Below are positions 1-64,000 of a stretch of 64,000 nt of DNA, piece after piece (the stretch's first letter is position 1; each line of letters starts with the position of its first letter). The notes beneath the pieces were generated by a model. That model was not told the origin of the DNA, did no database searches, and was given only the letters and a program-made list of their open reading frames with translations. This DNA is from Peptococcia bacterium (GTDB taxonomy: Bacteria > Bacillota > Peptococcia > Peptococcales > SKKY01). The stretch lies in contig OZ245787.1 of NCBI GenBank assembly GCA_965228015.1, positions 446,938-510,937 on the forward strand. The letters run 5' to 3'. The translations under genes were made by a program, and so were the position numbers.

Positions 1-285
1 TCCGTCAAAAAGGCCTATTACTCCTTCAATTATGCTTAATTCTGCATCTTTACTTTTTTTATTAGCAGCTCTTTTACTAATTCTTCTCCAAGCATCCAGG
101 TATCTAAATTTCTGGAAAATTTACCTATTGCAATTGTGTGATAACTTGGATCTATGTAGTCTGGTCCTGATTTAAATCCCTGTACATTGATACCAGCATT
201 TTTAAACAACCTCATTAAACCACTGGTAATAGTTGTTTTTTCCTGATCCGCTGTTAACACCAGCAATAACAATCCTGGATTTCAT
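1..285 (-). pseudogene. cbiA: cobyrinate a,c-diamide synthase CbiA, 5' part (continues beyond window start), frame-disrupted
   Basis: ATG at 285 sits behind AGGTGA and reads MKSRIVIAGVNSGSG. The T6 run at 236-241 then changes frame into KTTITSGLMRLFKNAGINVQGFKSGPDYIDPSYH (ORF 36-272). Bases 1-35 read IIEGVIGLFDG in a third frame. Confidence 0.75.
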
Positions 286-387
286 TATAAATCACCTGCT
301 TTATATTTGATAAAATTTAAGAGATAAAAAAACCAATAGTAATTGCAAGAACTACCCATAGAAAAGTTGTTAAACATAATATGCTGA

Positions 388-1254
388 CTATCCCTGGTAT
401 TTTTTTTGAAGATTTTCTCCCATATATGCTCTAAAGTGTTTTTCGCCAAAATAATAATTATAACCACCAAGTCTGATTTCAAGAGCACCTGCAGCGGCAC
501 TTTCAGTATAACCACCATTTGGGCTGGGATGTTTATGTGCATCTCTTATTACGCTTTTTAAAGCATTTTTCCCATTTAAACCAGGATGTAAAAAGCAATT
601 ATTATAATAAGCAAAGAAGTAATTCTGGCTGGAATAAAGTTAAATGCATCATCAATTTTTGCTGAGAATCTGCCGAAATATAAATATTTTTCATTTTTAT
701 ATCCTACCATTGAATCCATAGTATTTACAGCACGATATAAAAAAGCCAGGGGCGCCCCACCTATCATTCCATAAAATAAAGGGCTGGTAATACCATCTAC
801 AATATTTTCAGCAACAGTTTCAATTACAGCCCTGGAAATTTCTTCCTCATTAAGTTTTTCTGTATCTCTTCCAACTATCATTCCAACTTTTTTTCTTGCT
901 TCTATAATTTCATTTTTATCTAATAAATCATATATTTCCATAGCTGCTTTTTTTAAAGCTTCTGTAGAAATTGTAAAAGAAATCAAAATTCCGGAAATTA
1001 ATATATAAATATAAGGATGAATTAAAGAAGCGAAATATACAATTAAAAAAACGATAAAAAACAATTAGCAATACTAAAAAATTTAAAAGCATGCCCTTTA
1101 AATTTTTATTTTTATTTGTATTTTCTTCTTTAAATAATTTCTTTTCAAATAAAGAAATAAGACTACCAATTAAAACCACAAGATGGGGAATTTTTTTAGG
1201 TTCTGAAAATATTAAATCCCAAAGGTAACCAAAGGTTATAATTATATAATTCAT
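388..1254 (-). pseudogene. cbiB: adenosylcobinamide-phosphate synthase CbiB/CobD, split into three frame segments
   Basis: N-terminal ORF 928-1254 (LWDLIFSEPKKIPHLVVLIGSLI). Middle ORF 576-1064 (GRDTEKLNEEEISRAVIETVAENIVDGITSPLFY..NFIPARIT). The C-terminal part at 388-575 reads HKHPSPNGGYTESAAAGALEIRLGG in another frame. Confidence 0.7.
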
Positions 1255-2778
1255 TTCAGCCCCATAATTTTATATACTTTTTCCATATCGAAACTGTTTC
1301 TTACAACATCTGCAAGTTCATTAAAAACTTTTTCTTTTTCTAAATTATAATTAATGGTTGTTTCTTTTATTTCTTCCCATCCTTTTTCTTTTCTAAGATT
1401 ATTTAATATTTTTCTTCTAAGGGAGTCTGCATCAAAGATACCATGGATATAAGTTCCTATTATTTTCCCTTTTGCATTAATAACTCCATCTATTTCCTGG
1501 GCATCTTTACCAAAACGGTGATTTATTAAAAAAGGATTTACTTTTTCTGTCCCAAATTCTGTAGTACCCATATGAATTTCATAACCATAAAATCCTTCCC
1601 CAAGGCACCCTTCAAGTAAACCTTCCTCTTTAACAATAACACCTGTAACTTGAGTAGTAATTTTTTCTTTACCAAAAGTAGTAGTAGTATCAAGTAAACC
1701 TAAGCCAGCTAACTCAAGCAGGTCTGATTCAGTTTTTTCAGGATCATATATCATTTTCCCAAGGAGCTGATAACCTCCGCAAATACCAACAATCCAGGTT
1801 CCCTTTTCTTCTGCTTCAATAATTTTTTTATCAAAACCTGTTTCTTTTAGAAATAACATGTCACCGATTGTATTTTTACTTCCTGGAATAATAATATCAG
1901 GATTGCCAAGATCTTCCGTTTTCTTGACATATCTAAGGTTTACATCAATTTCATCTTTTAAAATATCAAAATCTGTAAAATTTGAAAGATGTCTTAAATT
2001 AATAACTGCAATATCAAGAAGATAATCTTTTTTCTTTAGTACTTTTTTTCTCAATAACCACAGAATCCTCTTCAGGAATTGCAATTTCAGCAAAATAAGG
2101 AACTACGCCTAAAACTGGCTTCCCTGTTTTTTCTTCAATAAAGTCTAAAGCAGGTTTAAGTAAATCTATATCTCCACGAAACTTGTTAATTACAATACCT
2201 TTTACTAAATCTCTTTTTTCTTCATCTAAAAATTCCAAAGTCCCAACCACAGAAGCAATTGCACCTCCACGGTCTATATCTGCAATGAGCATAACAGGAG
2301 ATTTAAGTTCTTTGGCAACCTTTATATTTACAACATCATTTTCTTTTAGATTAATTTCAGCAGGACTTCCCGCACCTTCAATAAGTAATGCTTCGTAAGT
2401 GCTGGTTAAATAATCCATACTTTCTTTAATTACTTCCCAGGTCTTAGTTTTATACTCTCTATGATATTCTTTAGCACTAAGATTACCTGTAGGTCTTCCA
2501 AGAACTATTACCTGACTCTTTGCATCTTGTGTAGATTTTAATAAAACAGGATTCATTCTTACGTCCGGCTCGAGTCTGGCCTCTTCTGCCTGAACAACTT
2601 GAGCCCTGCCCATTTCGCCACCATCTTTTGTTACATATGAATTCAAAGCCATATTTTGAGCTTTAAAAGGAGCAATATAATATCCATCTTGTAGTAATAT
2701 TCTGCAAAATGCTGCGGTTAAAGCACTTTTCCCAACATTTGAGCTTGTTCCCTGAAACATAAGTGTTTTTGCTTTCAA
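1251..2778 (-). pseudogene. cobQ: cobyric acid synthase CobQ/CbiP, one frameshift
   Basis: N-terminal ORF 2014-2778 (MFQGTSSNVGKSALTAAFCRIL, KAQNMALNS). The C-terminal amidotransferase ORF 1251-2093 (GICGGYQLLG, IHGIFD) is in a different frame. The junction is at the T7 run 2043-2049. Confidence 0.8.
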
Positions 2779-2783
2779 AAAGA

Positions 2784-3425
2784 TTAATCCCTTTCAATAA
2801 TTGAGTACAATAATGCATTAATTACTGAAGCCGCTATTGGGCTTCCTCCTTTAATTCCCCTTACAGCAATATAGGGAACAGGAGATTCTTCAATAAGTAA
2901 TTCTTTACTTTCAGCTGCACCAACAAATCCAATAGGAGTATTAATAATCAAAGCTGGTTTTACCCCTTCATTTTTACACATTTCTAAAACTACAAATAAA
3001 GCAGTTGGAGCATTACTAATTGCAATAATACTTCCATCCATTTTATCTTTAAGCATTTTCATTGCGGTCATTGATCTGGTTTCACCTGTCTTTTTCGCCT
3101 CATCAGCAACTTCTTTATCAGAAACTATACAAACAGCCTCAGATCCTGTTTTATTTAAAGCAGGTTTATTTATGCCTGTTTTAAGCATATTAACATCAGT
3201 AATTATTAAAGCGCCTTTTTTCAGCGCTTCAATTCCGCTTTTAATTGCATCAGGATGTATTTTTACAATATTTGCATAATCAGGATCTCCTGATGTATGA
3301 ACAATTCTATGTACTACAGACTTAAGAAGAGGATCCCAGGACTCAGAGCCAATTAATCCTTCAATTATATCCCTGCTTTTGTTTTCAATACCCATAGGAT
3401 TTATTTCATATTCATAATTATTCAT
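2784..3425 (-). CDS. cbiC: cobalt-precorrin-8 methylmutase CbiC
   Basis: 213-aa intact ORF with HRIVHTSGDPDY and GNAPTALF-type (ISNAPTALF) motifs. The ATGA start/stop overlaps the upstream gene. Confidence 0.85.
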   Translation of the reverse strand: MNNYEYEINPMGIENKSRDIIEGLIGSESWDPLLKSVVHRIVHTSGDPDYANIVKIHPDAIKSGIEALKKGALIITDVNMLKTGINKPALNKTGSEAVCIVSDKEVADEAKKTGETRSMTAMKMLKDKMDGSIIAISNAPTALFVVLEMCKNEGVKPALIINTPIGFVGAAESKELLIEESPVPYIAVRGIKGGSPIAASVINALLYSIIERD

Positions 3426-4180
3426 ATAGAAACCTCCATTATTTTTTCTATTAAATCACTAATATTATTAAAAATTACAGGATAATTTACTCCTGGTCTT
3501 TTTATAACAATAATGTTTATACCAGTTTCTTGTGCTGATGATACTTTTTCTTCGAATCCACCTGCTTTGCCACTCTCTTTCGTAATCAATAAATCAATAT
3601 TTTTTCAGATATTATTAATTTATTAAATTCAGCGAAAAAAGGACCCTGCATGGCTATAATATTCCCAGTTTTAATTCCTGCTTCATCACAGGATTTTATT
3701 GAATTTACATCGGGGAGAACTCTTGCAAAGATATTTTTATTTTCAATTACTTTTTTAAATTCTCCCAATCCGCGAGAACCTATTGTTAAGAGAATGTTTT
3801 TTCCATATAATATAGTCTTTTCTGAAGCTTCCTTTGTATTCTCAACTAAAAAAAGATTTTTATTGTTTTCCAATGATATTTCTGGTCTTTCATACCTAAT
3901 ATATTGAATATCTCTTTCTTCAGATGCAATCAAAGCATTCTTAGAAATATTTCTTGCAAAAGGGTGGGTAGCATCAACGATAGTTTTTATATCATTTTCG
4001 ATAATAAAATTTATTAATTTATCTTTATCTAATACTTCCTTTATAACATTATCAGAAAATTCCTCAGCCAGATATTTCCCATAATCACTTATTGTTGTGG
4101 TTATAAATTCTACTTTACTTTTTTTTAAATTCTTTTGCTATTTCACGAGAATCAATTGTTCCCCCTAAAAGCAGAATCAT
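3422..4180 (-). pseudogene. cbiJ: cobalt-precorrin-6A reductase CbiJ/CobK, at least two frameshifts
   Basis: ATG 4180 gives MILLLGGTIDSREIAKEFKK, then stops. Reading continues in another frame after the T8 run 4119-4126 (SKVEFITTTISDYG..DATHPFARNIS, ORF 3586-3933). The C-terminal part at 3422-3585 (LITKESGKAGGFEEK) is in a third frame. Confidence 0.65.
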
Positions 4181-5289
4181 ATTTTTCCCTTCCTTTTCAA
4201 CCATATGTTATTATTTTTAGTTAAAACAAATGGCCTCTCTTCCGAAACAGCTATTGTCATTCCTTCCATTTCTGCTCTGGTTAAAATTAAAGTTAAATTG
4301 TTATTTACAGAAAATAATGCAGAGGGTTCCGCTACTCCCCAGGAATCAGTATTTTTATATACAAAATCAGATTTGTTCAATTCTGGGTTATTATCAAAAA
4401 CACTATTTAGTTCCGTTGAAGAAAAAGTAATAAATGGAATTTTATATTTATTAGAAAAATTTTTAATACATTCCTCTTCACTTTTTAGCTGAATACTTCT
4501 GATTTCTTTGACAGATTTAATTGAAATATTTAATTCTTTTAATGTGTTAATTATATTTTTTTCGAAAATATCTTTTGGGAAATTCTTTTTACATCCAACC
4601 CCAATAATTATGTTCTTTGGTCTCAAAAAAATATCAGTTTTATTGAATTGAAACTCTTTATTAGTTATATATCCTTTAAAGGAACTTGTAGAAAACAAAT
4701 TTTTAAACTTGTTTATCTCAGGAAAATCTATTGATTCATCAAGAATTAGTTCTATATTGTTTCCATTAAGGAGAGCAGCATTAAAAAATTTTATATTTTT
4801 AACTGGTTCTATATTAAGGTCGTAATCTGATGCAAATGAATCTAATGCATATATTTTAATTACATCTGTGGCAGTTGTAATTACCGGATTACTGTTTAAA
4901 AACTCCGCAACTTCTTTTGTTAGTTTATTCCCACCACCAAGATGTCCTGAAAGAACACTTATAGTATTTTCACCATTTTCATCAATTACTATAATCCCAG
5001 GGTCAACATCTTTACTTTTTATACTGTCTTTTATTGTTTTTACAACTATCCCAAGTGCCATGATAAATATCAGACCGTCATATTTATCAAAAGATTCTTT
5101 TACCAGAAAAGAAAAATTATCCCATTGAGAATTCCAATTCCGCCGTTCTTTAATCGTCAGTAAATCTACATTAGAATATTCAGTTGCTATTTTTTCGCCC
5201 AAAAGAAAGCCCTTATTTGTAAGAGCTATAAGGCCTATCCTCTTTATTATTTTTTGCTTCTCTGTATTCTGTAGTAAAAGATGGATCAT
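4177..5289 (-). CDS. cbiG: cobalt-precorrin-5A hydrolase CbiG
   Basis: 370-aa intact ORF in a cbi operon position between cbiF and cbiJ. IGLIALTNKG N-terminus. The true start is uncertain because of a 77-nt overlap with cbiF. Confidence 0.7.
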   Translation of the reverse strand: MIHLLLQNTEKQKIIKRIGLIALTNKGFLLGEKIATEYSNVDLLTIKERRNWNSQWDNFSFLVKESFDKYDGLIFIMALGIVVKTIKDSIKSKDVDPGIIVIDENGENTISVLSGHLGGGNKLTKEVAEFLNSNPVITTATDVIKIYALDSFASDYDLNIEPVKNIKFFNAALLNGNNIELILDESIDFPEINKFKNLFSTSSFKGYITNKEFQFNKTDIFLRPKNIIIGVGCKKNFPKDIFEKNIINTLKELNISIKSVKEIRSIQLKSEEECIKNFSNKYKIPFITFSSTELNSVFDNNPELNKSDFVYKNTDSWGVAEPSALFSVNNNLTLILTRAEMEGMTIAVSEERPFVLTKNNNIWLKRKGKI

Positions 5290-6007
5290 AAAATTTTGAT
5301 AAAGAATATTCTTTTTTCAAAACATCTCCAACTAATATCAAAGCAGTTTTATTAATTTCGGCTTCTTTTACTTTTTCAGCTATGTCAGATAATGTTCCAA
5401 CAACTTCTTTTTGATCGGGCCAAGAAGCTTTTTGAACAACAGCAATGGGAGTTTCAGCTGAATATCCACCTTTTAAAAGTTCATCTACAACATCTTGAAC
5501 CATGCCAACACTTAAAAATATTGCCATGGTTGCTTGATGTTGAGCTAGTAAATGAAGCTTTTCTTTTTCAGGAACGGGAGTTCTTCCTTCTATTCTTGTT
5601 AATATAAGAGTTTGAGATACATCTGGAAGTGTATATTCTAAATTTAATGCTGCTGCTGCTGCAAAAACAGATGAAACACCAGGAATTACCTGAACTTCAA
5701 TTCCCAAATTATTTAATGGTTTAATTTGTTCCTGAATAACACCATACATACTTGGATCTCCAGTGTGAAGTCTAACTACATTTTTCTTAGCCTTAACTCC
5801 TGCAATAGTAACTTCCAGCACTTCATCAAGAGTCATATGAGCACTGTTATGGATTTCTGTTCCTTTTTTACAATATTTAAGAAGATCCGGGTTTACTAAA
5901 GATCCTGCATATATAACAACATTAGCTTTTTGAATTGTTTCAAGTCCTTTAACTGTAATCAGTTTTGGATCTCCAGGGCCTGCTCCAACAATATATACTT
6001 TTTTCAT
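5213..6007 (-). CDS. cbiF: cobalt-precorrin-4 C11-methyltransferase CbiF
   Basis: Intact ORF; VYIVGAGPGDPKLITVKG, VVRLHTGDPSMYG and VIPGVSS are tetrapyrrole methylase motifs. Confidence 0.85.
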   Translation of the reverse strand: MKKVYIVGAGPGDPKLITVKGLETIQKANVVIYAGSLVNPDLLKYCKKGTEIHNSAHMTLDEVLEVTIAGVKAKKNVVRLHTGDPSMYGVIQEQIKPLNNLGIEVQVIPGVSSVFAAAAALNLEYTLPDVSQTLILTRIEGRTPVPEKEKLHLLAQHQATMAIFLSVGMVQDVVDELLKGGYSAETPIAVVQKASWPDQKEVVGTLSDIAEKVKEAEINKTALILVGDVLKKEYSLSKFYDPSFTTEYREAKNNKEDRPYSSYK

Positions 6008-6584
6008 TATCTTTCCTCCTGTTTTTTGCTGAAATTATAAAAATTGGTTTTTGCCCCTTAAGCATTTGATACTCTTTAATTATTTCTATATTTGAAATAT
6101 TAATTTGTATACTCTCAAAATCAGCATTTTTTTATTAAAATAATTTATTCCTGAATAAGCAGTATTAATTGTTACTGTGTTAAGAACAATATTTTTTACG
6201 GACTTTAGTGACCATAGATATTCTAAAATATCCTCCAGGTTGCCTCCGCTTCCTCCAATAATTACTTTGTTCGGTACTTCTAGATTTTCAAAAACTTCTG
6301 GAGCCAATCCCTGAACAGGTATTATATTTTTTACATTAAATTTATTAATATTTTCTTTTAATTAAGTTGATTCCATTACTATTTCTTTCTGTAGCATAAA
6401 TTTTTGAATTTGGAAAATTAACAGCTACTTCAACAGAAATACTTCCAGTTCCTGCACCAATGTCCCAAATTATATCATTTTCTTCTATTTGCATTTTTAT
6501 AATCGAAAGAGTTCTAACTTCAGACTTGGTCATTGGAACTTTCTCTCTTAAAAAATCCTCATCTTTTATCTGCTTATAATTCAT
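6007..6584 (-). pseudogene. cbiT: cobalt-precorrin-6B C15-methyltransferase (decarboxylating) CbiT, several frameshifts
   Basis: N-terminal MNYKQIKDEDF..PMTKSEVRTLSI..DIGAGTGSISVE (ORF 6345-6599). Middle piece is ORF 6086-6307. The tail is in another frame, where an A7 in place of the A6 at 6024-6029 would give AKKQEER-stop overlapping the cbiF ATG. Confidence 0.65.
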
Positions 6585-7215
6585 AATTATCCTCATCAAT
6601 CAAAATCATTACAGCAGGCAGCTGCTCATTTATAGTGTAATTTTTATAATCTTTTAATTTAAATTCAAGAATATCTTCATTATTATAACCTAAATTTATA
6701 CATATAAGAACTATGAAATTTCTATCTGCTTTTGCTTTAAGATATTCACAAACTTTTAATGGATTATTTTTTGGATCTGTCAACATCCCTATTTTCTTTT
6801 CTTCCATGTGATTATCTAATATTTCAAGATTCCTTCCATGAAGATTAAGGAGTACAGCGTCATGCCAAGAAAGGCCTGCTTTGGCAAAAGCCATTTGCAT
6901 TGAACTAATTCCAGGGATCATTTTTATTTCTTTTCGATGGAAAAATTTTGAAATATAATTTAGTAAACTGTAAAATCCCGGATCTCCGGAAACCAGAATG
7001 ACAATCTTTTTATTATTGTAATTATTTTTTATTATTGTAATTATTTCAGAAAGATTGCTTTTTATAACATAATTTTCTTTTTGCAAATATAACCATGGTT
7101 CAAGATTTCTTTCTCCGGCAATTAATATATCGGCTCCTTCAATTGTTCTGATACCCTCTGGTAAAATATATTCTTTGATCCCTAAACCAGTTCCAACTAT
7201 TGTGAAATGTTCCAT
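6574..7215 (-). CDS. cbiE: cobalt-precorrin-7 C5-methyltransferase CbiE
   Basis: 213-aa intact ORF with a tetrapyrrole methylase fold (VGTGLG, VSGDPGFYS, IPGISS). Confidence 0.8.
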   Translation of the reverse strand: MEHFTIVGTGLGIKEYILPEGIRTIEGADILIAGERNLEPWLYLQKENYVIKSNLSEIITIIKNNYNNKKIVILVSGDPGFYSLLNYISKFFHRKEIKMIPGISSMQMAFAKAGLSWHDAVLLNLHGRNLEILDNHMEEKKIGMLTDPKNNPLKVCEYLKAKADRNFIVLICINLGYNNEDILEFKLKDYKNYTINEQLPAVMILIDEDNYEL

Positions 7216-8310
7216 CCCGCAAATTCTCCAATCTTTCCAGCTTTATTATTAATATAAAGTATATTCTCTCTATCCTTTAATAACACGATCCCCACAGAAG
7301 CTTGAGAGAAAAGATATCTTTCACTTCTTTCAGAAGCTTTTTCAGCAATATCTTCCCAAATTTTCCCATAACCATTTTCTTCAATAATTTTCCATGCTCC
7401 CTCTGTGGTAATTTCATTCATAACAGTATTAATTAATTCTGATGGAGCATTATGCCGGGCAAGGTGAGCTGCTAATATTTCCATTCTTGAATCAGATATT
7501 CTGTTATGAGTATAGAAGTTACCTCCTGCTACTTTTACAATTTTACCAATATGACCCCATAAAATAATATTTTCAAAACCATTATCTAAAGCATGCTCCA
7601 GCATATAACCTATAAAATTGCTTGTGGTTACTATAGCATCTCTTGGAATTCCATATTTAACCGCAGAATCCATGCCAATATTTCCTGGTGTAAGAACTAT
7701 AGCTTTATACCCAAGAGCTTTGGTTGTTTTAATCTGGGGGACAAGAGAAACCTTAAATGCTTCTTCAGACATTGGTTCTACAATACCAGTAGTACCTAGA
7801 ATGGAAATCCCACTAATGATGCCTAAATGTGGATTAAGGGTTTTTTGCTAATTCCTCACCTTCAGGTACACTAATTTCAATAAAGAACTCCCTGTTTTCT
7901 TCAAAAAATTCCTGAAGATTTTCTATAATCATTTTTATTGGCCCAGGGTTAATTGCAGGTTCTCCCGGAGGGACAGAAAGTCCAGGTTTAGTTACCTTCC
8001 CAACACCTTTACCTGCAGTTAAAGTAACATCTGTAATTTTATTTGCATTATTTGATATCATTGCAGTAACAACTATGTCTTTTCTATGAGTGATATCCAG
8101 ATCGTCTCCTGCATCTTTTTCAATAGTTACTTTGGCAATATTTTCACTTAATATTTCTATGTTTTTTACAGGTATTTCCAAATACCCACCTCTTGCTAAC
8201 TTTACAGAAACCTTATCATGTTTTTCCTTATTTAATAAAACAAGAACAGTAGCTTTTGCTCCAACTGCCGCGCATGTACCTGTTGTATATCCTTCTCTTA
8301 GCTCTTTCAT
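7197..8310 (-). pseudogene. cbiD: cobalt-precorrin-5B C1-methyltransferase CbiD, one frameshift
   Basis: N-terminal ORF 7834-8310 (LREGYTTGTCAA). After the T6 run 7841-7846 the sequence continues in another frame as TLNPHLGIISGISILGTTGIVEPMSEEAF (ORF 7197-7772). Confidence 0.75.
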
Positions 8311-9854: not shown

Positions 9855-10115
9855 TTATCTTACTTCTACTATTAACTTAATAGCAGTTCTTTCTTCACCA
9901 TCAATTACAATGTCAGTAAAAGCAGGAATACAAATTAGATCGATTCCGCTCGGGGCAACAAATCCTCTTGCTATCGCAATTGCTTTAATTGATTGGTTTA
10001 ATGCTCCCGCTCCTATTGCCTGTATCTCCGCTGAACCTTTTTCTCTAATAGTTCCAGCCAGAGCACCTGCTACAGAATTTGGATTAGACTTTGCTGAGAC
10101 CTTCAAAACTTCCAT
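9855..10115 (-). CDS. spoVS: stage V sporulation protein S
   Basis: 86 aa from ATG 10115: MEVLKVSAKSNPNSVAGALAGTIREKGSAEIQAIGAGALNQSIKAIAIARGF. The longer track ORF is an upstream extension. Confidence 0.9.
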   Translation of the reverse strand: MEVLKVSAKSNPNSVAGALAGTIREKGSAEIQAIGAGALNQSIKAIAIARGFVAPSGIDLICIPAFTDIVIDGEERTAIKLIVEVR

Positions 10116-10134
10116 GCAACAACTACCTCCCCAT

Positions 10135-10899
10135 TTAATAATATTTATGGTTAATTCTATTAATAAAAATACAACTACCCAAAGTATCAAATTCCATTTC
10201 CAAACCATTAACCATAAGATCCTCATCAGAAACTTCAAATCTTACTGGCATCTTAGTCAAAAATCTCTTTATTGCTATATCCTTTTTTATACCCAATACA
10301 GAATTATTTGAACCACACATTCCTGCATCGGTAATATATGCAGTTTTATTATTTAATATTTCTTCATCCGCTGTTTGAACATGAGTATGTGTTCCAATTA
10401 CAGCAGAGACTTTTCCAGCGAGGAAATGACCGATTGCTTTTTTTTCGGAAGTAGCCTCTCCATGTATATCTACAATAATTATTGAATTTTTTTCAATTTC
10501 ATTTAAAACTTTCTCTACGCTTTGAAAGGGAGGATACAAATTATCAAGGAATACAGTGCCTAAAAGATTTATTACCCAAATTTTTTTATTATTAAAAGAA
10601 AAGGAACGGATTCCTTTTCCAAGGGTTCCTGGAGGATAATTTAACGGCCTTACAAACCTTGAGTCATCTGCTATTTTCTCAAATCCCTTATTGTCCCAGG
10701 TATGATTCCCCATTGTTATTGCTTTAATACCTAATGAAAATAATATATCAGAATCATTTTTATTAATACCTTTGCCTCCAGTGACATTCTCACCATTTGC
10801 AATAATAAAATCATATTTTTCTTTATTCTTTTCCAAAAACATTTCTACTGCTGACACTCCAGGCTTGCCTACAATATCACCTAAAAATAATACTCTCAA
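10135..10899 (-). CDS. ymdB: YmdB-family metallophosphoesterase (2',3'-cyclic-nucleotide phosphodiesterase type)
   Basis: MRVLFLGDIVGKPG, GENVTGG, GNHTWD and DIHGEATSEK motifs. It lies in the conserved rny-ymdB-spoVS order. Confidence 0.85.
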   Translation of the reverse strand: MRVLFLGDIVGKPGVSAVEMFLEKNKEKYDFIIANGENVTGGKGINKNDSDILFSLGIKAITMGNHTWDNKGFEKIADDSRFVRPLNYPPGTLGKGIRSFSFNNKKIWVINLLGTVFLDNLYPPFQSVEKVLNEIEKNSIIIVDIHGEATSEKKAIGHFLAGKVSAVIGTHTHVQTADEEILNNKTAYITDAGMCGSNNSVLGIKKDIAIKRFLTKMPVRFEVSDEDLMVNGLEMEFDTLGSCIFINRINHKYY

Positions 10900-10974
10900 A
10901 TTTTTACCATCCCGTTTTTTTATTCTTTAACTATAACTACAATAATAATATAAATCTATAATATTTCAAGTAAA

Positions 10975-11000
10975 CAAGAAAAACGACCCCGAAGGATCGT
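10975..11000 (-). terminator. intrinsic terminator after rny
   Basis: Minus strand ACGATCC-TTCG-GGGTCGT stem-loop followed by a T-rich run. Confidence 0.6.
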
Positions 11001-11008
11001 TTATAATC

Positions 11009-52448: not shown

Positions 52449-53137
52449 GCAAAAAACACCCCCAGTAACATTACTGCAAGGATTGGCCCTACTGAAGCTA
52501 GTGCAATCAAACCAAAACCATCATCTGATGAGTTTCTGCCCCTCATAACTGACGAAACACCAATACCAAGAGCCAAAATAAAAGGTACTGTCATAGGTCC
52601 TGTTGTAACTCCCCCGGAGTCTAAAGCTACCGGCAGAAAAGACTGGGGAGTTATAAAAACTAAAATCAATACTAAAGAATAACTAATAACTAAAATTTTA
52701 TTTATTGATATATCTAATATTATTTTTATCATTGCCAATGCAACAAAAATTGCAACTCCTAAAGCTACAGAATAAATTAGAAGATTCTTACTTATTGCAC
52801 TCCCAGATACAACTTCAACCTGGGTTGCCAGTATCCTTACATCAGGTTCCGCTACTGTAACAACGAATCCTAGTAAAAATCCAAAAAATATTACTAAAGC
52901 TGGTTTACCGGTTTTAGGTAAAGATGCTCCAATCATTTCACCTACAGGAAGGAGTCCTATATTTACTCCAACAAAAAATAATATCAAACCAAAACTTACT
53001 ATTAGAACCCCGGCAATAAAATTTACTAAGTCATCAAAGGGAAGTTTAATTATAGTAAATTGTAAAAAAAAGATTACAAAGGTGACGGGAAAGACTGAAT
53101 ATATTACTTCTTTAAATGCTTCTTTAAAATTGGTCAT
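52445..53137 (-). CDS. DUF1538 family membrane protein
   Basis: 230-aa polytopic ORF and first gene of the triad. ATGA-type overlap with the paralogue. Confidence 0.65.
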   Translation of the reverse strand: MTNFKEAFKEVIYSVFPVTFVIFFLQFTIIKLPFDDLVNFIAGVLIVSFGLILFFVGVNIGLLPVGEMIGASLPKTGKPALVIFFGFLLGFVVTVAEPDVRILATQVEVVSGSAISKNLLIYSVALGVAIFVALAMIKIILDISINKILVISYSLVLILVFITPQSFLPVALDSGGVTTGPMTVPFILALGIGVSSVMRGRNSSDDGFGLIALASVGPILAVMLLGVFFA

Positions 53138-53221: not shown

Positions 53222-53823
53222 GTGAGTAACATAAGAATTGTTGCTGATAGTAGCTGTGGTTTGAATAAAGATTTAGAGGAGCGATTAAATCTTACCCATG
53301 TTCCTTTAACTATTACTCTCGGGGATGTTCACTATAAAGATGATGAATATCTCGATGTTTTAAAAATGCTTGATGATATTGAAAAATCTCCAGAAGGTCC
53401 TAAATCAACATGTCCCTCCCCTCAAGATTTTATAGAAGCTTTTAAAGAAAAAAGCTCTATTTTTGTAGTAACAATGACAGCTGCTTTAAGCGGAACATAT
53501 AACAGCGCTCGTCTTGCCAAAGATTTATTTCTTCAGGAACACGGAGATAAATTTATACATATTTTTAATTCAAAAGGATCTTCCGTAAGAGAAGCATTGA
53601 TTGCAATTAAAATTAAAGAACTTATTGATGAAAAGCTTAGTGAAAATGAAATAGTTGAAAAGGTAAATCATTATATCGAAAATCAAAAATATTTTTTTCA
53701 ACTAGGAAATCTTGATAACAATGATAAAAAATGGAAGAATCCCAAAATTAAAAGGTATGTTAGCAAATGTTTTAAATATTAAACCTATTCTTTTTTGCAA
53801 ATGACAACGGTGAAGTAGAGCTT
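53222..53823 (+). pseudogene. DegV-family fatty-acid-binding protein, 5' part (two frameshifts), interrupted by IS3 copy 3
   Basis: IRIVADSSCGL..TCPSPQDFIEAF..VVTMTAALSGTYNSA. The frame changes before MIKNGRIPKLKGMLANVLNIKPILF and again at the T6 run about 53790-53795. It ends GEVEL at the IS. Confidence 0.7.
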
Positions 53824-55077
53824 TGTAATGGTCAAGCATCTTTGTAACACTAAGTACGGAAAATCAGTTTATATTTCGTGCTTCAAATGGAGTCAGCCCT
53901 CCATTGTATGAATGAGGTCGAATGTGGTTGTACCACACATAAACATATTTATTGATAGTTTCATCTAATTGTAGGTCGGTTTCAAATTTTTGGTAGTAAA
54001 TAAGCTCTGACTTAAGTGATTTATAAAATCTCTCCATTGGAGCGTTATCGTATGGGCAACCTGTTTTACTCATGCTTTGCCTTATTCCTTGGCTTTTGCA
54101 GTACTCTACGAAAGCCAAGGAGGTGAACTGTACCCCCTGATTTGAATGTAAGACTAACCCTTCATCTGGACTCTCTCTTTCGAGAGTTTTAGACAAGGCT
54201 TCTATTGCCAGATCTGAGTTGATCCATTTTGAGTTAACCGTTGCTATTGCTTCCCTTTTTGCTAAATCTATAATAGTACAATTATAACGCATTTTACCGT
54301 TTATTAATCTTATATAGGTGAAATCAGTACACCATACTTTATTTCTTTCTGTGACAGAGAAATTTTGATTAAGAATATTGGGAAATACTTTGTTCTTTTC
54401 ACCTTTTACATATTTGGGCCTTTTTCTTACAGTGATTGCATGCAGGTTTAATTCCTTGTTCATATACTTATGCGCTGTTGTCTTACTAATAAATATATTT
54501 TGCCTTGCAAGAAAAGTGACTATCCACCTATGGCCAATAATGCGTCCGTTATTGTAATAAATACTTTTTATGTTTTCTTGAACTTTAGCCTTTCCCTCAC
54601 GATACGTGGATTTTCTGTTCTTTAAGTAATTGTAGTACATATTCGGAGAGAGGTTGAACTTGCGGCATAACCAGCGCAATCCAAACTCAAGTTTATAGGC
54701 ATCAATGAACCAATATACCACTAATCGATTTCCTTTGCGAAGAATGCCGCTGCTTTTTTAGGAAGTCATTTTCCTTTTAAAGTTCCATAAGCTTCTTGTT
54801 AAGCGCTCTATATTCCTCTGGTGATATTGCATTTTCTTTATTTTGTGGTTTTGTGTAATGACATTCTTCGCTGTATTTTTTTATCCATCCGGACATTGTT
54901 GATTTTGATACACCGTAGGTTGCAAAAAGATCACCAAGGCTTTTGCCTTTTAGATATTCACGTACAACCTCCTTCTTGAATTCTAAATCGTAACGTTTGC
55001 TCATTTTGTAATCCTCCTAGTTCGAGTTTATTATATACTATCGGTGCTAGGTGTTACAACAAGACTATACCATTACA
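53824..55077 (-). mobile_element. IS3-family insertion sequence, copy 3 (1254 bp)
   Basis: Same IRs as the other copies, with a CTT direct repeat at 53821-53823 and 55078-55080. orfB is uninterrupted (285 aa, 53864-54721). orfA carries a CAA-to-TAA change at 54777-54779. Confidence 0.92.
53864..54721 (-). CDS. IS3-family OrfB (DDE integrase core), uninterrupted copy
   Basis: 285 aa: ..WCTDFTYIRL..HSNQGVQFTS..YDNAPMERFYKSLKSE. It is in the +1 frame relative to orfA rather than -1 (see findings). Confidence 0.8.
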   Translation of the reverse strand: MVYWFIDAYKLEFGLRWLCRKFNLSPNMYYNYLKNRKSTYREGKAKVQENIKSIYYNNGRIIGHRWIVTFLARQNIFISKTTAHKYMNKELNLHAITVRKRPKYVKGEKNKVFPNILNQNFSVTERNKVWCTDFTYIRLINGKMRYNCTIIDLAKREAIATVNSKWINSDLAIEALSKTLERESPDEGLVLHSNQGVQFTSLAFVEYCKSQGIRQSMSKTGCPYDNAPMERFYKSLKSELIYYQKFETDLQLDETINKYVYVWYNHIRPHSYNGGLTPFEARNIN

Positions 55078-55320
55078 CTTTATGCAAATATCAGAAGCGA
55101 AAAGAAATCTATTCGTACATTTGTAGATCTAATTGGAGAACATTGTGAGGATATTTCAGAAAAAATTCTTGGAATCTCTCATTGTGAAGCAATTAAAAAA
55201 GCAGAGGCACTAAAAAAAGCTATTGAAGAAAAATATAACTTTAGAGAAATAGTTATTGTTCCCACTCGAGGTTTAAGCAGTACTTATATGAATCGTGGAG
55301 GAATTACAGTGTCATTCTAA
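55078..55320 (+). pseudogene. DegV-family protein, 3' part
   Basis: (L)YANIRSEKKSIRTFVDLIGEHCEDISEKILGISHCEA..VIVPTRGLSSTYMNRGGITVSF continues in frame once the IS and one CTT are removed. Confidence 0.7.
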
Positions 55321-55375: not shown

Positions 55376-55887
55376 TCATTTCTCAGTATCTACAGAAATT
55401 AAAATTTCATTTCTTTTGAAGATTCCTGGAATAAAGGGTGGATTATACCTTGCTAAAATCATATTTCCTTTAGGAATATAAACCTTTTCTTTTATCCAAT
55501 CAAATAGAAGTTTCATTTTTTCTTGTATCAATTCTTCATTAACTGTTCCAGAAAACTTTATTGCAGCGAAGCTTTCATTAATATACTCTTTAAATGATAT
55601 TCTCTCATCTTTTGGCTCTGGGAATTTTGAATCTAATTTATCAAAAGGTAAAACAAACTCAGTTGTAATTCCATCATTCAATATTTCATTTATTACAGGA
55701 GTGGTCATAGCAATTTTTTACCTTACTCATTACTACCGCCAATATAATTAAACAATAAATTAAAACCGGGGCTTCCTCTCAGATCATCTTCTTTTACTTT
55801 TGCAGTAATAAAATTCTTATACTTTCTTAATTCAAAAGGATCCTCCTCTAATACCACATCAAATTCCGCAGTTTTATAAAGCGGCAT
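55376..55887 (-). pseudogene. SOUL/HBP-family haem-binding protein with an in-frame TAA plus an A-run frameshift
   Basis: ATG 55887 sits behind AGGAGG. MPLYKTAEFDVVLEEDPFELRKY..LFNYIGGSNE-TAA(55723-55725)-GKK, then a frame change at the T6 run 55714-55719 into IAMTTPVINE..ARYNPPFIPGIFKRNEILI. Confidence 0.65.
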
Positions 55888-55899
55888 AATAAATCCCTC

Positions 55900-56338: not shown

Positions 56339-57765
56339 TTATACTTTAGAAAAAATCGGCCAAGTATTCATAAAAATATACCCAATAAAAGTTATTGTAA
56401 TTATACTAAGAATTGCTAATCTTGATCCATGTTGGAATAATTTACCAGGATCAAATCCATAACCAACCGGAATAGCACGTATTGATACTGGAAGAATATA
56501 CGCACTATTGAAAGCAACAATTGAAATAAATAAGTATGGTATAAAATTTAAACCGAGTCCAATAGTTATACTCATTATTACTGGTATGGTAATTGCAGCT
56601 GCTGCTGTATTACTTGATATTTCTGAAAGGCCAGAAGCAAAAATAACGAAATATAATATCAATACCAAACCTCCTGATAAATTTCTTTCAGACATTATTT
56701 CTGCAAACTTTAAGGCTGCCCCTGTTTCTGTAACTAGCTTTCCTAAAGCAAGGCCACCCGCAAATAAAAATAACATTCCCCACATCATTTCACTCTCTGC
56801 TTTTTTCCATGTCAGTAAAACTTTTCCTTTTTCATCCTTTACTATAAAAGTAAATAAACCAATAATTAAAAATATATATGCTGGTTTCATTCCTGGTAAA
56901 AATCCAGAATAAAGAGGTCTTACAAATGCAAGAACTGTTGCAATAAGAAATAATAGAAAGCTTATTTTTTCTCCTTTTTTCATTTTTCCCATTTCTCTAT
57001 ACATTTTTTTAAAATATTCAGATGAACCTGCTATAGAGTCCACAGATAATTTTATAGAAAAAAGATATATCAAATTCATAATAAGAATTATTATCAAAAA
57101 TGGCAAAAATCTTATAACCCAATCAATATACATAAATTCCTGACCAGTATATTCTTCAATATAACTTATAGCTACCAAATTAGCCGCTCCACCTAAAGGA
57201 GATGCAAAACCTCCAATTCCTGCTCCCCATGTGATAGCCAAAATTATTGGTACTGCAATCTCACTAACTCCAATATCCTTATCTCCACTATATTTCAACA
57301 TAGATATGGAAATTAGTATTAATATTGCACAAACAACAACATTAGGTAAAAAGACTGATAAAATTGCAGAGGCAAACAGCCACATTGTTATCTGCTGTTT
57401 CATTGATCCTCCAACAAGGCATAAAGTTTTTATAGCTAATCTTTTATCAAGTCCAGTAGTCATCCAAGTTAAACAAATCAAATCTGCACCAAATAGTAAT
57501 ATAATTATCTCAGAAAAATATTAGCTTATAATTATTTCCATGGATACTACATTGAAAATCGCATTAACTGCTATTGGAATTAATGCAGTAACAGCTATAT
57601 GAACAGGGCGGAATATCCACCAAGTAGCCATCCAAAAAATAATACCAATAGCAACTGAGCCCTCAAAATTGAATGAATCTTTAAATAATAAAATAGAAAA
57701 AGCGAATAATACCGGACCTAAAAAAGCGATAAGTAATTGATCTCAAACCTTCTAAAAACTGACAT
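56339..57765 (-). pseudogene. SLC13/DASS-type anion:Na+ symporter with a 5' frameshift and an in-frame TAA
   Basis: ATG 57765. The frame changes within the first ~12 codons. In-frame TAA at 57521-57523 (..VVSMEIIIS*YFSEIIILLFGADL..). The remainder is the 380-codon open ORF 56339-57481. Confidence 0.65.
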
Positions 57766-58792: not shown

Positions 58793-60208
58793 CTAAAAAG
58801 TTGATAAGCCGGTAAACTCCTGAATACGATAGATTATAGTTTTAATAACTGATTCTGTCTTACATTCATCATATTCAACAGTATAATGTCCATCCTCATT
58901 ATTCCAAATTCTATTAAAGTAATTTTTTATGTCATTATTAAATTTGCTATCAGATTTGGTTTTTATTAATAAATTTGTTTCCAAATTATAATCATCAATA
59001 TTTCTTCTGGTTAAATTGGCAGATCCCCCAATAATTATAGATTCATTTTATTTTTCAATAAAAACCATTTTTGTATGAAATTGCTCACCATGGGTATTAT
59101 ACCATTTAATTTATATCTCATTATTAGTTTTATCTCTTAATTCCTGAGCTACCTGCCTGTTGGGAATTCCGTTTTTTCTAATCCAAAAGTATCTTTATTA
59201 GGGTCTAATATTAATTTTATGTTTACTCCTCTTTCTGATGCCCTAACCAGAGATTCAATTGTATCTCTTTGAGTCAGATAAAACATACCTATTGTAATAT
59301 TATTACCTTCTGAGGTGTCATTAATTGTACCAATCAAACTGTTTCTGATTTTACCTTCAGTAATAAGAGCTACCGATGTTTCTGTATCTTGGGAAGTTAC
59401 TTCTTTATCCTTAAAATAAAAATCTTTATTTTCATATCCCGAAAACTCTGCTACTTTAATTTCCGATTCCATTAATTCCTGAAGAACTTTACCTTCTACT
59501 TTAAAGCTATGTTTGAGTGGTACCCACTTCCATCACGGGGATTGGCAGGGGTTACAATTCCTGCTTTATCAGTAACAATTACTTTCCTGTGATTTGCTTT
59601 AAAGTTTAATAGCTTCAAATATCCTCTTAAAGTTACTTTTTCAGAATCGGGGCTGAAAGGATTGGGAAGCCAGCCTTCACCTTCTGCTCCAAACCATTTG
59701 ACAGCAGTTCTCCAGAAACCAGCATATAAAGGATTTGAATCTCTGATTTTTTCATTATCTGTAATTACTACATCTATCTTATTTTCTTTTAGTTCTTTTA
59801 TATATTTAGATTCATAAACCCCATAAAAATTATTTATTTCATCTGTAATAAATAGTATAGGAGTATCTGGTTTCGACTCCTTCTTACTTATTAATGCTTT
59901 AGTAAGCTGCTCAGATACATTAGGGAAATTATATTCTCTGTTATAATCATCATTAAACAGAAACATATCTAAAATAATATATTCTTCAGCATTATTTATT
60001 AAATTGAGCCATTCCTTTAAAATAACTTGTTCATAAACTTTTTCATTATCTTTTATATAGCTTAAGTCATATAAATTAGAATCTGTTCTTTCATTACCCA
60101 TAACTGAAGTTCCCTCCGGCATTGGAGTAGTAAAACCATTTATAATTGAAACAATCAAAAACAAAATTATAAAATATTTAATTACTTTTCTTAATGTTTT
60201 TTATTCAA
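58793..60208 (-). pseudogene. membrane-anchored phospholipase D / cardiolipin-synthase-like protein (two HKD motifs), at least 3 frameshifts
   Basis: HKD-1 is NHRKVIVTD (ORF 59496-60164). HKD-2 is HTKMVFIE..GGSANLTRRN, in another frame near 59000-59090. A TTG at 60208 would join if the T6 at 60197-60202 were T7. Confidence 0.6.
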
Positions 60209-62228: not shown

Positions 62229-62708
62229 TTACTTATGATAAGCTTCTCCTCTGTTAATTTTGAATCCTCTATATATCTGCTCCAACAATATTACCCTCAT
62301 TAGTTGATGGGGAAAAGTCATCTTGGAAAAGGACAACTTGAAATTCGCTTTTTTCCTCACATCTTCTGAAACCCCATTAGACCCACCAATAACAAATACC
62401 AAATTACTATCCCCTGATAATGAAAGCTCTGCAAGTTTTCCTGCTAAGTCTTCTGAAGAAATAAGCTTCCCTTCAACATCTAAAAGAATTACATATTCCC
62501 GTTCTTTTATCTTATCTAAAATCTTATTTCCTTCTTTATTCTTTATAATCTCAATATCTTTATCACTTGCATTATCTGGCTCTTTTTCATCGGCGATTTT
62601 AATAATTTCTACCTTTGCGTAAGCACTAAGTCTTTTCACATATTCATTAACAGCATCTTTTAAATATTTTTCTTTAAGTTTGCCCACAGCAATTATTTTT
62701 ATATTCAT
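62229..62708 (-). CDS. rlmH: 23S rRNA (pseudouridine1915-N3)-methyltransferase RlmH
   Basis: [58 protein letters not shown]. Confidence 0.9.
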
Positions 62709-62782
62709 TATTTTCTATTCCTTTTTATATGTTTTATTTATTATAATCTATTTATATGCTACATAACAGGAGACGAAACATT

Positions 62783-63562
62783 ATGATAATTGATGCAAAA
62801 AATATTTCTGAAATAAGAAAATCAAAATATATATTAAAAGATGTAAGCTGGAGTGTAAAAAAGTGAGTATTGGGCTATTTTAGGTTTGAACGGTTCAGGT
62901 AAAACAACTTTACTTAATATGATTAACGGATATATTTTCCCATCTCAGGGGGAACTTACAGTGTTGGGAAAAACCTTTGGAAATATGATTTAAGAGAACT
63001 TAGAAAATCTATCGGCTGGGTTAGTACAGCTTTACAGGAAAGATTGTATGGCAGGGATACTGCTTTGGAAATTATATTAAGCGGAAAATTTGCCACAATT
63101 GGTTTATATGACAATATTACTGATGAAGATATTAAAAAAGCTGAAGAAATTCTGGAAAGTCTTTCCAGCGCTCAGTTCTCATCAAGAATTTATAATACCC
63201 TGTCTCAAGGTGAAAAACAGAGAATTTTAATCGGCAGGGCTCTTATGGCAGAACCTGAACTTTTGATTCTTGATGAACCATGCACTGGTCTGGATATTTT
63301 TTCAAAAGAGCAGTTACTTTCAAACATTGAAAACATTAGTAAAAAGAAAAGCTCCCCCGCGCTTATTTATATTACTCACAGAACAGAAGAAATATTTCCT
63401 GTCTTTGAGAAAACACTATTATTGCGCAGAGGAGAGGTTCATTCCTATGGTAATACCAGTGAAATGTTCAATGAAAATAATTTAAGTGATTTTTTTGAAA
63501 CAAAAGTTATATCAAAGAAAATTAATAATCGTTATTCTTTAGAAATACCTTCACTTTTTTAA
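62783..63562 (+). pseudogene. ABC transporter ATP-binding protein (ModF/YlmA-like), two frameshifts in the 5' third
   Basis: MIIDAKNISEIRKSKYILKDVSWSVKK / EYWAILGLNGSGKTTLLNMINGYIFPSQGELTVLGKTFG / KYDLRELRKSIGWVS.. then ORF 63044-63562 (LSQGEKQRILIGRAL, LILDEP). Confidence 0.7.
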
Positions 63563-63985
63563 ACAAGTAATTTTTGATTCCCCAATAACTTTTATTCCAT
63601 TTTTAATTAATAAGTCTGCGGTGATGCCATTGCCTTCAATTATTTTACCCGAAAAAGTCCCATTATATATTTTCCCGCAGCCGCAGGAAGGACTTCTTTC
63701 TTTTAAAATTGCATATTCACAGCCAAACATCTTGGCAATTTTGAGGGTTTCTTCTGCACCTTTTTTAAACTCAAAGGTCACATCCCTGCCTTCTTTATTT
63801 AATACTTTACCTCCAGCAATTTCACTTGGTGGTCTTGGGGTTTCCAGACCTCCAAGTTGTTCGGGACAAACCGGAATAAAACAGTAGGAGTCTTTTACCT
63901 CTATAATATTTTCATCAGCCTGTTCACTTCCATCATACCTTGAGTTAATTCCAAGCAAGCAAGAGCTCACTAATACTCTCCTCAT
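63551..63985 (-). CDS. DUF523 (YbbK/TudS-like) protein
   Basis: MRRVLVSSCLLG..RYDG..PVCPEQLGGLETPRPP..ERSPSCG. Confidence 0.7.
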   Translation of the reverse strand: MRRVLVSSCLLGINSRYDGSEQADENIIEVKDSYCFIPVCPEQLGGLETPRPPSEIAGGKVLNKEGRDVTFEFKKGAEETLKIAKMFGCEYAILKERSPSCGCGKIYNGTFSGKIIEGNGITADLLIKNGIKVIGESKITCLKK

Positions 63986-64000
63986 TCCCAGCACTCCAAT

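Follow-up and report, generated by a model that had tools for sequence, protein, structure and literature searches.

Early reductive genome decay is exemplified by Mycobacterium leprae. Further cases are Sodalis glossinidius, with ~50% pseudogenes (PMC7067036), the recently host-restricted Serratia symbiotica, whose genome is in early decay (PMC3056288), and the luminous symbionts of ceratioid anglerfish, in which reduction is transposon-mediated (PMC6020299). Here we analyze a stretch of 64,000 nucleotides (nt) of contig OZ245787.1 (assembly GCA_965228015.1, positions 446,938 to 510,937; hereafter the window) in which, as in those four systems, many genes are inactivated by frameshifts, nonsense substitutions and insertion sequences (ISs), with core information genes intact. 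The window further resembles these decaying genomes in having intact orthologues in close relatives, a raised ratio of nonsynonymous to synonymous substitution rates (dN/dS), faster substitution and pathways that decay jointly. Unlike them, it belongs to a Clostridia-class anaerobe seen in metagenomes only and with no known host, rather than to a proteobacterial or actinobacterial symbiont; its intact comparators are of the same species (~97.5% identity), the decay is unusually early (dN/dS 0.28), and 64 kb of it is seen here.

An earlier note, made from the DNA letters alone, had claimed that about two dozen genes in the window are broken by several kinds of mutation and had read this as genuine relaxed selection on accessory functions, possibly in a slippage-prone lineage, while granting that the letters by themselves leave room for some assembly error. 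We assign a probability of roughly 0.88 to the reading that purifying selection on many accessory modules has very recently ceased in the lineage behind the window, which belongs to an uncultured Clostridia ('Eubacteriales') species and is represented here by a single 1.9-Mb contig. Early reductive evolution with pseudogenes and ISs is already known, and the window adds a new case to it but no new mechanism.

Lineage-specific lesions and intact relatives

In a scan of genomes with RecA, which proved too conserved a query, the best identities among the matches listed were 70-78%, with no close relative among them. Exact look-ups of the AddA and CbiK ORFs gave no record, probably owing to differently called starts. 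A search with the N-terminal fragment of NrdD returned a full-length NrdD of 703 amino acids (aa), 97% identical, encoded on a 26.9-kb contig (L083) from the Logan assembly of SRR28465797. This contig is colinear with the window from 16.5 to 39.7 kb at 97.5% nucleotide identity and carries an intact counterpart for each gene that is broken in that interval. Protein searches with CbiG and one MinD-like protein pulled in further comparators: a 152-kb JGI contig of dataset 3300034524 (L084, L086), an identical sequence in the Logan assembly of SRR11566844 (L085, L087), and a second, slightly different strain in SRR28465797 and SRR21539855 (L088, L089). The comparators represent four datasets other than that of the window, namely a JGI metagenome and three SRA runs with Logan assemblies; a literature search on the sample accessions found no paper mentioning them. 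The comparator contigs are syntenic with the window; identity amounts to 96.9-97.7% for positions 1-55.4 kb and to 85-92% for the parts of 58.8-63 kb that they cover. In this comparison with orthologues of the closest relatives, which the earlier note had proposed as a check, all compared genes are intact in contigs from the four datasets, and the two intact strains, 0.9% apart, show zero indels in 12.4 kb. These results show that the lesions are real and specific to the lineage of the window.

Relative to these comparators, ~60 disabling lesions fall in 24 of 56 comparable genes (Table 1). Single-base changes in coding DNA, mostly in A/T runs, comprise ~28 losses and ~13 gains (raw tallies, in which a few events are counted twice in overlapping comparator loci). 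Six 2-nt losses lie at or beside runs, such as A8 to A6 in cobQ, CA in cbiD, TG in azlC and TC in cbiB. Larger deletions remove 5 nt from the kinase gene, 13 nt from cbiB, 26 nt from the Fe-ADH/GGDEF overlap and 131 nt from the 5' end of the NMT1-type binding-protein gene; the 26-nt deletion is bounded by 11-nt direct repeats and eliminates both the Fe-ADH stop codon and the beginning of the GGDEF gene. Losses of 3, 9 and 18 nt that keep the reading frame are also present. Seven nonsense substitutions have a known ancestral codon: five are CAA>TAA (18521, 22244, 44052, 59048 and 59111), and the remaining two are TGG>TAG at 43530 and GAA>TAA at 55723. Six of these seven are G:C>A:T transitions. 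When the IS copies are set aside, ~240 nt have been deleted against ~22 nt inserted.

All coordinates quoted in the earlier note hold the sequence given for them, and most of its individual lesions stand. The relatives bear out the run changes in nrdD (28475-28480 and 28069-28074) and cbiJ (4119-4126), the origin of the DUF2207 stops at 44052 and 43530 from CAA and TGG, and the 10-bp tandem duplication, whose extra copy lies at 19870-19879. Similarly, the stops noted in IS orfB (TGA at 13324 and 17128) and orfA (TAA at 54777) stand where other copies have TGG and CAA. Other assignments were only partly right. The cobQ lesion is real, but the T7 run at 2043-2049 to which it had been ascribed is unchanged in the relatives, and the true lesion is a loss of two bases (A8 to A6) at ~2028-2033. 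The cbiD lesion does lie at the run 7841-7846, as a 2-nt (CA) loss at its edge. In the SOUL gene, the TAA at 55723 does replace a GAA codon but is not the sole lesion, a -1 change (A7 to A6) lying ten bases downstream. Hit genes beyond the examples given in the note include nrdG, azlC, cbiA, cbiB, cbiT, the kinase gene at 39.7-41.1 kb, yitT, the GGDEF/HD-GYP and PLD genes, both ABC ATPase genes and both substrate-binding genes.

Stop-to-stop segments were listed in all frames, neighboring fragments were joined at the frame change, and the conceptual proteins were scanned with family models. Each joined protein gave one alignment that covered nearly the whole family model and passed through the junctions (joined-protein residues on model positions/model length): CobQ 9-510 on 1-479/480, CbiD 13-359 on 1-345/346, CbiT 11-195 on 1-187/189, CbiB 7-273 on 3-266/305, CbiJ 2-234 on 16-252/256, NrdG 4-148 on 2-154/154, NrdD 24-714 on 5-701/712, AzlC 21-229 on 9-217/221, the histidine kinase 23-475 on 9-454/457, OpuAC 31-294 on 2-257/257, SOUL 9-166 on 2-172/173, Na_sulph_symp 27-463 on 29-468/472 (spanning the TAA) and DegV 6-276 on 2-275/280 (spanning the IS). 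In addition, the DUF2207_C alignment spans the in-frame TAG, the ABC_tran alignment spans the TAA at 22244, and the GGDEF alignment spans a T5 run. Because full-model alignments cross the junctions, the split open reading frames (ORFs) are single interrupted genes and not adjacent small genes. Full model coverage was likewise found for addA, addB, recA, recX, rny, ymdB, spoVS, the opuA genes and the block at 47983-53137; nearly all of these had been called intact before, and they carry no frameshifts. The tally is 22 clearly broken and four subtly altered genes among ~63 in the window, in agreement with the 'about two dozen' of the earlier note, plus three defective IS copies and one transposase remnant. 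The subtly altered genes, whose ORFs remain open, are cbiF, Fe-ADH, asnC and the permease gene at 23322-23981. Fe-ADH and the GGDEF gene were also considered as one fusion gene, which is ruled out: the relatives have two separate genes that overlap, and both are damaged in the window by the 26-nt deletion.

The presence of several in-frame TAA, TAG and TGA codons would also be explained if the lineage used an altered genetic code in which stops are read as sense. The probability of this is close to nil. The in-frame stops include each of the three stop codons, stand where the relatives encode Gln, Trp and Glu, and are confined to genes that are also frameshifted, with ~37 genes clean under translation table 11. 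An altered code was rejected both for the window and for contig L090 (NCBI GCA_030153525.1, JASEKR010006033.1; positions 1-11724), in which all three stops likewise occur, clustered as in short out-of-frame stretches. L090 is ~76% identical to the window in nucleotides and colinear from nrdD to the surface-protein gene; its nrdD, opuAB, transporter and surface-protein genes are fragmented as well, through either independent decay or a noisy assembly.

Distribution of lesions, selection and sequencing error

Changes in run length depend on the kind of gene. A length other than that in the relatives was found for 36 of 121 A/T runs of at least 6 nt in broken genes and for 6 of 18 such runs between genes, against 0 of 58 in a housekeeping set defined a priori (addA, addB, recA, recX, rny, ymdB, spoVS and rlmH) and 0 of 58 in other intact genes. 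The difference between broken and housekeeping genes is significant (Fisher p = 1.4e-7), and at the pooled rate the chance of finding zero changes in the housekeeping runs is 7e-5. A second test needs no a-priori classification of genes: when 60 disabling lesions are placed at random on 56 genes, ~23 genes are expected to be lesion-free, and 32 were observed (P ~3e-4).

Substitutions follow the same division. Across all regions together, broken genes have a dN/dS of 0.283 and intact genes one of 0.149 (Fisher p = 2e-8 on nonsynonymous and synonymous difference counts, Nd:Sd); against the first relative alone the values were 0.23 and 0.16, which is not significant, and significance was reached only once all regions were pooled. 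A three-way comparison without an outgroup cannot polarize changes, and we used instead an outgroup species (L091, NrdD 86% identical) for 13 genes. In broken genes, 73 substitutions were specific to the window and 27 to the relative (2.7-fold, p = 4e-6); in intact genes the counts were 140 and 105 (p = 0.025). In the same comparison, C>T changes numbered 86 on the window branch and 31 on the branch of the relative, and T>C changes 81 and 61. The C>T excess could reflect relaxed selection exposing a mutation bias, or a defect in deamination repair. Net deletion together with the C>T excess on the window branch means that a deletional bias and a shift towards A+T are both seen.

Alternatively, the frameshifts might be homopolymer miscalls in a long-read metagenome assembly, with the genes intact in the cell. 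About two thirds of the frame changes are indeed ±1 in A/T runs, most of which lack one base compared with the relatives, whose sequences derive from short reads, and the names of sibling contigs (ctgN_NNx_l) resemble the output of metaMDBG, an assembler that, according to its paper, uses homopolymer-compressed reads and needs a polishing step for errors that are 'mostly homopolymers'. Two sibling contigs, L001 and L082, are moreover palindromic artefacts. One-base differences in A/T runs that break ORFs are thus common to long-read artefacts and to the window, which differs from such artefacts in the function-dependent distribution of the changes (0 of 116 versus 36 of 121 runs), substitutions, larger indels, ISs and reproducible sites. 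The absence of any change in the 116 runs of intact genes, including 41 in addAB and 58 in housekeeping genes, caps a uniform error at a few per cent per run, equivalent to ~3 of the 36 changed runs. Run miscalls also do not account for the seven nonsense substitutions, mixed-base deletions of 2-131 nt, the 10-bp duplication and ISs with target duplications; nor for the raised dN/dS and branch-specific substitution excess of broken genes. Both +1 and -1 changes are present, and separately built contigs match exactly at the nrdD and nrdG sites. Sequencing error as the main cause is rejected, and genes intact in the cell behind miscalled runs are very unlikely.

The contigs that agree with the window, L001 (27x) and L082 (10x), are from the same organism (ENA ERZ25074352). 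Both are near-perfect palindromes in which one segment occurs twice, inverted, around a noisy hinge, and both have the appearance of chimeric reads left over from a long-read assembly. L001 (1-6249) corresponds to window positions 14599-17812 and L082 (1-8063) to 27119-30563. Away from the hinges they match the window exactly, including the TGA of IS copy 2 and every frameshift site of nrdD and nrdG, and all differences lie within ~100-300 nt of a hinge. They probably derive from the same sample, and their agreement argues against random consensus error but not against systematic error.

Split genes in long-read metagenome-assembled genomes are usually dismissed as bad polishing. Here the breaks are biological by an orthogonal test, and automatic 'frameshift repair' or quality filters would erase a genuine signal. 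Taken together, run distribution, clustering, lesion types, dN/dS, branch excess and reproducible sites sustain the earlier note in its reading of genuine relaxed selection on accessory functions.

Probable relaxed selection and its possible causes

The lesions are grouped by module. Half of the anaerobic cobalamin pathway is broken (cbiA, cbiB, cobQ, cbiJ, cbiT and cbiD), with cbiC, cbiG, cbiE, cobU and cbiK open. Both genes of the anaerobic ribonucleotide reductase, nrdD and nrdG, are broken. All three genes of an OpuC-like transporter are hit, as are the binding-protein and permease genes of an NMT1-type transporter. The kinase gene is broken and its response regulator is not; DUF2207 is broken and lemA is not. 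A cyclic di-GMP enzyme and surface and membrane proteins are also hit. By contrast with these modules, the block at 47983-53137, which is flanked on both sides by decayed regions, is evidently still under selection; its P-II-like protein is a tandem one and its DUF1538 proteins are membrane proteins.

Replication slippage shortened or lengthened A/T runs (±1, -2), and stops arose from CAA and TGG codons by G:C>A:T transition. Short deletions (one of them between direct repeats), a 10-bp tandem duplication and three IS3-family insertions were added. Such changes were kept where a gene had become dispensable and purged from addAB, recA, recX, rny, ymdB, spoVS, rlmH, opuA and the Fe-S/DUF1538 block. 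We propose that, after the failure of one gene of a module or the loss of need for its function, the remaining genes of that module evolved neutrally, and that slippage at the many A/T runs of an AT-rich genome, C>T changes, small deletions and IS transposition then piled up. A shift to a stable, nutrient-rich or partner-dependent niche, or a bottleneck, may have made these functions dispensable and weakened selection genome-wide. A pooled dN/dS this low would leave only ~15% of the path of divergence as neutral, which places the decay in the very recent past. The modest rate excess on the window branch fits weakened selection, as in a small population or after a niche shift.

Relaxed selection may not be the whole explanation, because a hypermutator, for example one with defective mismatch repair, would raise slippage instead of, or besides, a loss of constraint. 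Runs have changed about as often in broken genes (30%) as in intergenic DNA (33%), despite the genes having turned neutral only recently; the window branch is 1.3-fold longer even in intact genes and has an excess of C>T; and the two intact relatives, at 0.9% divergence, lack any indel in 12.4 kb. Mismatch-repair mutators typically produce at least 90% transitions in mutation-accumulation studies. Transitions make up 79% of changes on the window branch, against 70% on that of the relative, and fall short of this level. In addition, a mutator alone leaves unexplained why housekeeping genes have zero fixed frameshifts and why lesions cluster by module. The genes mutS and mutL lie outside the window. 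We consider a mutator contribution, and with it the slippage-prone lineage of the earlier note, possible, and a hypermutator as the explanation unlikely.

The decayed genes could also still be functional, either rescued by transcriptional or translational slippage or acting as phase-variable contingency loci. Tamas and colleagues reportedly described in 2008 poly(A)-tract frameshifts that are rescued by polymerase slippage in the insect endosymbionts Buchnera and Blochmannia. As in those genomes, frameshifts in the window are concentrated at A/T homopolymers of an AT-rich genome, many of them in A6-A8 runs, the type of tract in known slippage rescue; the genes hit include the surface protein and several transporters, and two lesion pairs (23977/23934 and 40843/40754) restore the frame. 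Efficient rescue requires roughly 9 A's at least. In comparison with Buchnera and Blochmannia, the tracts of the window are shorter (5-8 nt), additional irreversible lesions are present and essential genes are spared. Most broken genes carry several independent, mixed lesions, up to five, and the stops, multi-base deletions and ISs among them are not undone by slippage. The substitution patterns, too, are those of relaxed constraint. Retained function is highly improbable.

Several points weigh against recent relaxation of selection as we describe it. The dN/dS of broken genes is far below 1, and the selection signal comes from pooled counts. The baseline dN/dS of accessory genes may be higher, though the intact accessory genes here have 0.16. 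A platform-specific systematic miscall could still affect a few runs, site by site, and the contig names suggest a long-read assembler. The ecological cause (host, syntrophy or bottleneck) is conjecture, with no host marker in the window, and the decayed lineage is so far known from one sample.

Corrinoid auxotrophy with salvage would be predicted for this lineage (cobU is intact), together with absence of a class III ribonucleotide reductase and reliance on another. In the relatives, cobS follows just past the point where the window ends. Going further, it is conceivable, though doubtful, that the window captures a Clostridia-class ('Eubacteriales') lineage just as it begins to depend obligately on a host or partner, which would be the first such case on record, with near-simultaneous loss of de novo B12 synthesis, anaerobic ribonucleotide reductase, transporters, signaling and surface proteins, while free-living-type conspecifics coexist in other samples. 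Such a burst of losses might be driven by a repair defect. The fragmented genes of L090 hint that decay is recurrent in the clade. As decaying and intact strains of one species (~97.5% identity), the window and its relatives offer a natural experiment on how genome reduction begins in an anaerobic Firmicute: on the order in which modules are lost (B12 synthesis, nrdDG, redundant osmolyte and other transporters, signaling, envelope) and on the relative shares of slippage, C>T nonsense substitutions, small deletions and IS insertions.

Insertion sequences, gene order and variable regions

Three IS3-family copies of 1254 bp each and one transposase remnant lie in the 64 kb, all absent from the relatives. 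Their fragments match rve, rve_2 and rve_3, and a small helix-turn-helix (HTH) type orfA precedes an rve (DDE) orfB, the two overlapping at an A6G motif. The termini are TGTAATGGT...TTGTAACAC and its imperfect inverse, so that the terminal inverted repeats start with TG and end with CA. The elements share with the IS3 family their length, imperfect TG...CA repeats, orfA/orfB arrangement, A6G motif and, in two copies, 3-bp target duplications; they differ in that all three are defective. The copies have diverged from each other by 2-3%, too much for a single recent burst from a master copy. For copies 2 and 3, genuine transposition seems likely, as they lie within genes, are flanked by CTT duplications and are absent from the relatives. 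The flanks of the block at 12816-14541, which contains copy 1, overlap by 9 nt in the relatives, which points to an old insertion that had duplicated 9 bp and was itself hit and truncated afterwards.

The window has 31% G+C and nearly all of its genes are on the minus strand. Their order is the cbi/cob operon, spoVS-ymdB-rny, recX-recA, two ABC transporters, a large surface protein and opuA; then nrdDG, cbiK, azlCD, addBA, a two-component system, lemA-DUF2207, GGDEF/HD-GYP and Fe-ADH; and then the Fe-S/DUF1538 block, degV, SOUL, DASS, lysR, PLD, abiE and rlmH. An Rfam scan of the whole window gave no family at gathering score, with no cobalamin riboswitch near the cbi genes, cbiK or nrdD, and no tRNA was found in the 64 kb.

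Table 1. Features of the window, with changes relative to the intact relatives (+, gained nt; -, lost nt; run lengths as relative>window).
Feature	Position	Strand	Change or state
cbiA-like, 3' part cut by window edge	1..281	-	+1 (A5>A6) ~242; -1 (C) ~55; relative has intact 461-aa CbiA
cbiB pseudogene	288..1269	-	-2 (TC) ~1057; -1 (T6>T5) ~595; -13 nt ~406; intact in relatives, 317 aa
cobQ pseudogene	1254..2778	-	-2 (A8>A6) ~2028-2033; in-frame -3 ~1896
cbiJ pseudogene	3425..4205	-	+1 (A7>A8) 4119-4126; -1 (A7>A6) 3600-3605
cbiF	5216..6007	-	-1 (A7>A6) ~5256, three codons before stop; new C-terminus (264 aa vs 253 aa); methylase domain intact
cbiT pseudogene	6006..6599	-	+1 ~6360; -1 (A8>A7) 6127-6133; -1 ~6028
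cbiD pseudogene	7200..8310	-	-2 (CA) at edge of run 7841-7846
spoVS, ymdB, rny, recX, recA	9855..16044	-	intact, without coding indels vs relatives; rny and recX separated by IS insertion
1.7-kb insertion between rny and recX, absent from relatives	12816..14541	-	IS copy 1 + transposase remnant
IS3-family copy 1	12924-14177		TGA 13324 in orfB (TGG in copy 3); target duplication absent
UPF0236-type transposase remnant, 100 aa	14176-14475		profile positions 4-64 of 400; adjoins IS copy 1
ABC permease gene (251 aa in relatives)	16149..18163	-	split by IS3-family copy 2; -1 in T run 16560-16566
IS3-family copy 2	16728-17981		inside ABC permease gene; CTT target duplication; orfB TGA 17128 (TGG in copy 3); further run-length changes
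NMT1-type substrate-binding gene	18164..19005	-	131-nt deletion of 5' end at 19005; CAA>TAA 18521; -1 ~18513, ~18464, ~18226; +1 ~18213
Surface protein, CarboxypepD_reg repeats + Cu_amine_oxidN1 (798 aa in relative)	19044..21440	-	+1 ~21383; -1 21144-21149; -1 20059-20065; 10-bp tandem duplication 19870-19879
ABC ATPase, OpuC-like transporter	21509..22447	-	-1 (A7>A6) ~22415; CAA>TAA 22244-22246
OpuAC-family substrate-binding gene	22443..23340	-	-2 ~23253; +1 23146-23152; -1 22635-22639
Permease, OpuC-like transporter	23322..23981	-	-1 ~23977 and -2 ~23934, net -3; ORF open, residues 5-18 out of frame
nrdG pseudogene	27155..27633	-	-1 (A8>A7) 27454-27460; identical in L082
nrdD pseudogene	27626..29747	-	-1 (A7>A6) 28475-28480; -1 (A7>A6) 28069-28074; +1 (G) ~27672; identical in L082
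azlC pseudogene	31658..32342	-	-2 (TG) ~32134 beside A/T run
addA + addB	32371..39247	-	intact; 41 A/T runs of at least 6 nt, none differing in length from relative
Sensor histidine kinase (467 aa in relatives)	39706..41102	-	+1 ~40843; -1 ~40754; +1 (G) 40509-40515; -5 (AAAAG) ~40137
asnC-type regulator	41769..42200	-	-1 (A7>A6) ~42184 removes first HTH residues; -1 ~41770 in overlap with response-regulator start
yitT-family membrane protein gene	42322..42974	+	-1 (T7>T6) 42747-42752
DUF2207 gene (612 aa in relatives)	42900..44740	-	-1 ~44726; -1 ~44689; +1 ~44623; CAA>TAA 44052; TGG>TAG 43530
GGDEF + HD-GYP gene (499 aa in relatives)	45307..46733	-	26-nt deletion ~46716; -1 (A6>A5) 45916-45920; -1 (C) ~45306
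Fe-ADH	46610-47869		upstream of GGDEF gene; stop codon lost through 26-nt deletion of GGDEF gene
Nitro_FeMo-Co-domain proteins (2), MinD-like 4Fe-4S ATPases (2), DUF134, DUF5320, P-II-like, DUF1538 (2)	47983..53137	-	intact block; no frameshifts vs relatives
degV	53222..55317	+	split by IS3-family copy 3; +1 ~53718 and ~53792
IS3-family copy 3	53824-55077		inside degV; CTT target duplication; orfA TAA 54777 where other copies have CAA
SOUL heme-binding gene	55379..55899	-	GAA>TAA 55723; -1 (A7>A6) ~55714
DASS / Na-sulfate symporter gene	56342..57742	-	in-frame TAA 57521-57523; island absent from relatives, so no ancestral codon
PLD-family gene (466 aa in relative)	58796..60200	-	-1 ~59506; -1 ~59178; CAA>TAA 59111 and 59048; in-frame -9
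ABC ATPase gene	62747..63559	+	-2 (TG) ~62869; -1 (C) ~62981

Gene content differs between the window and its relatives at 55906-58793, 60230-62228 and 62717-62762. The window has a small hypothetical gene, the DASS pseudogene and lysR where the relatives have a 197-aa gene; the AbiEi/AbiEii toxin-antitoxin pair is found in the window only, and an MBOAT + DHHW gene pair (2.7 kb) beside rlmH in the relatives only. Beyond 58.8 kb the identity is only 85-92%, as would be expected from recombination or a variable region.

Some changes leave the frame open or restore it. The two frame-cancelling lesions of the permease gene (-1 at 23977, -2 at 23934) are 43 nt apart and enclose 14 garbled residues in an ORF that stays open, and those of the kinase gene (+1 at 40843, -1 at 40754) are 89 nt apart and enclose a TGA at 40824. 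Either chance or selection to restore the frame may lie behind these pairs. A small secreted-looking protein encoded at 39345-39674 (+) has 109 aa, compared with 115 aa in the relatives, through an in-frame 18-nt loss of one copy of a short repeat; its ORF is still open. In the SOUL gene of the relatives (143 aa), an in-frame deletion has removed 117 nt that are kept in the window (55383-55499 versus 5912-5913 of L088), and the window copy, though broken, spans the whole Pfam model (2-172/173), unlike the intact-looking copy of the relative.

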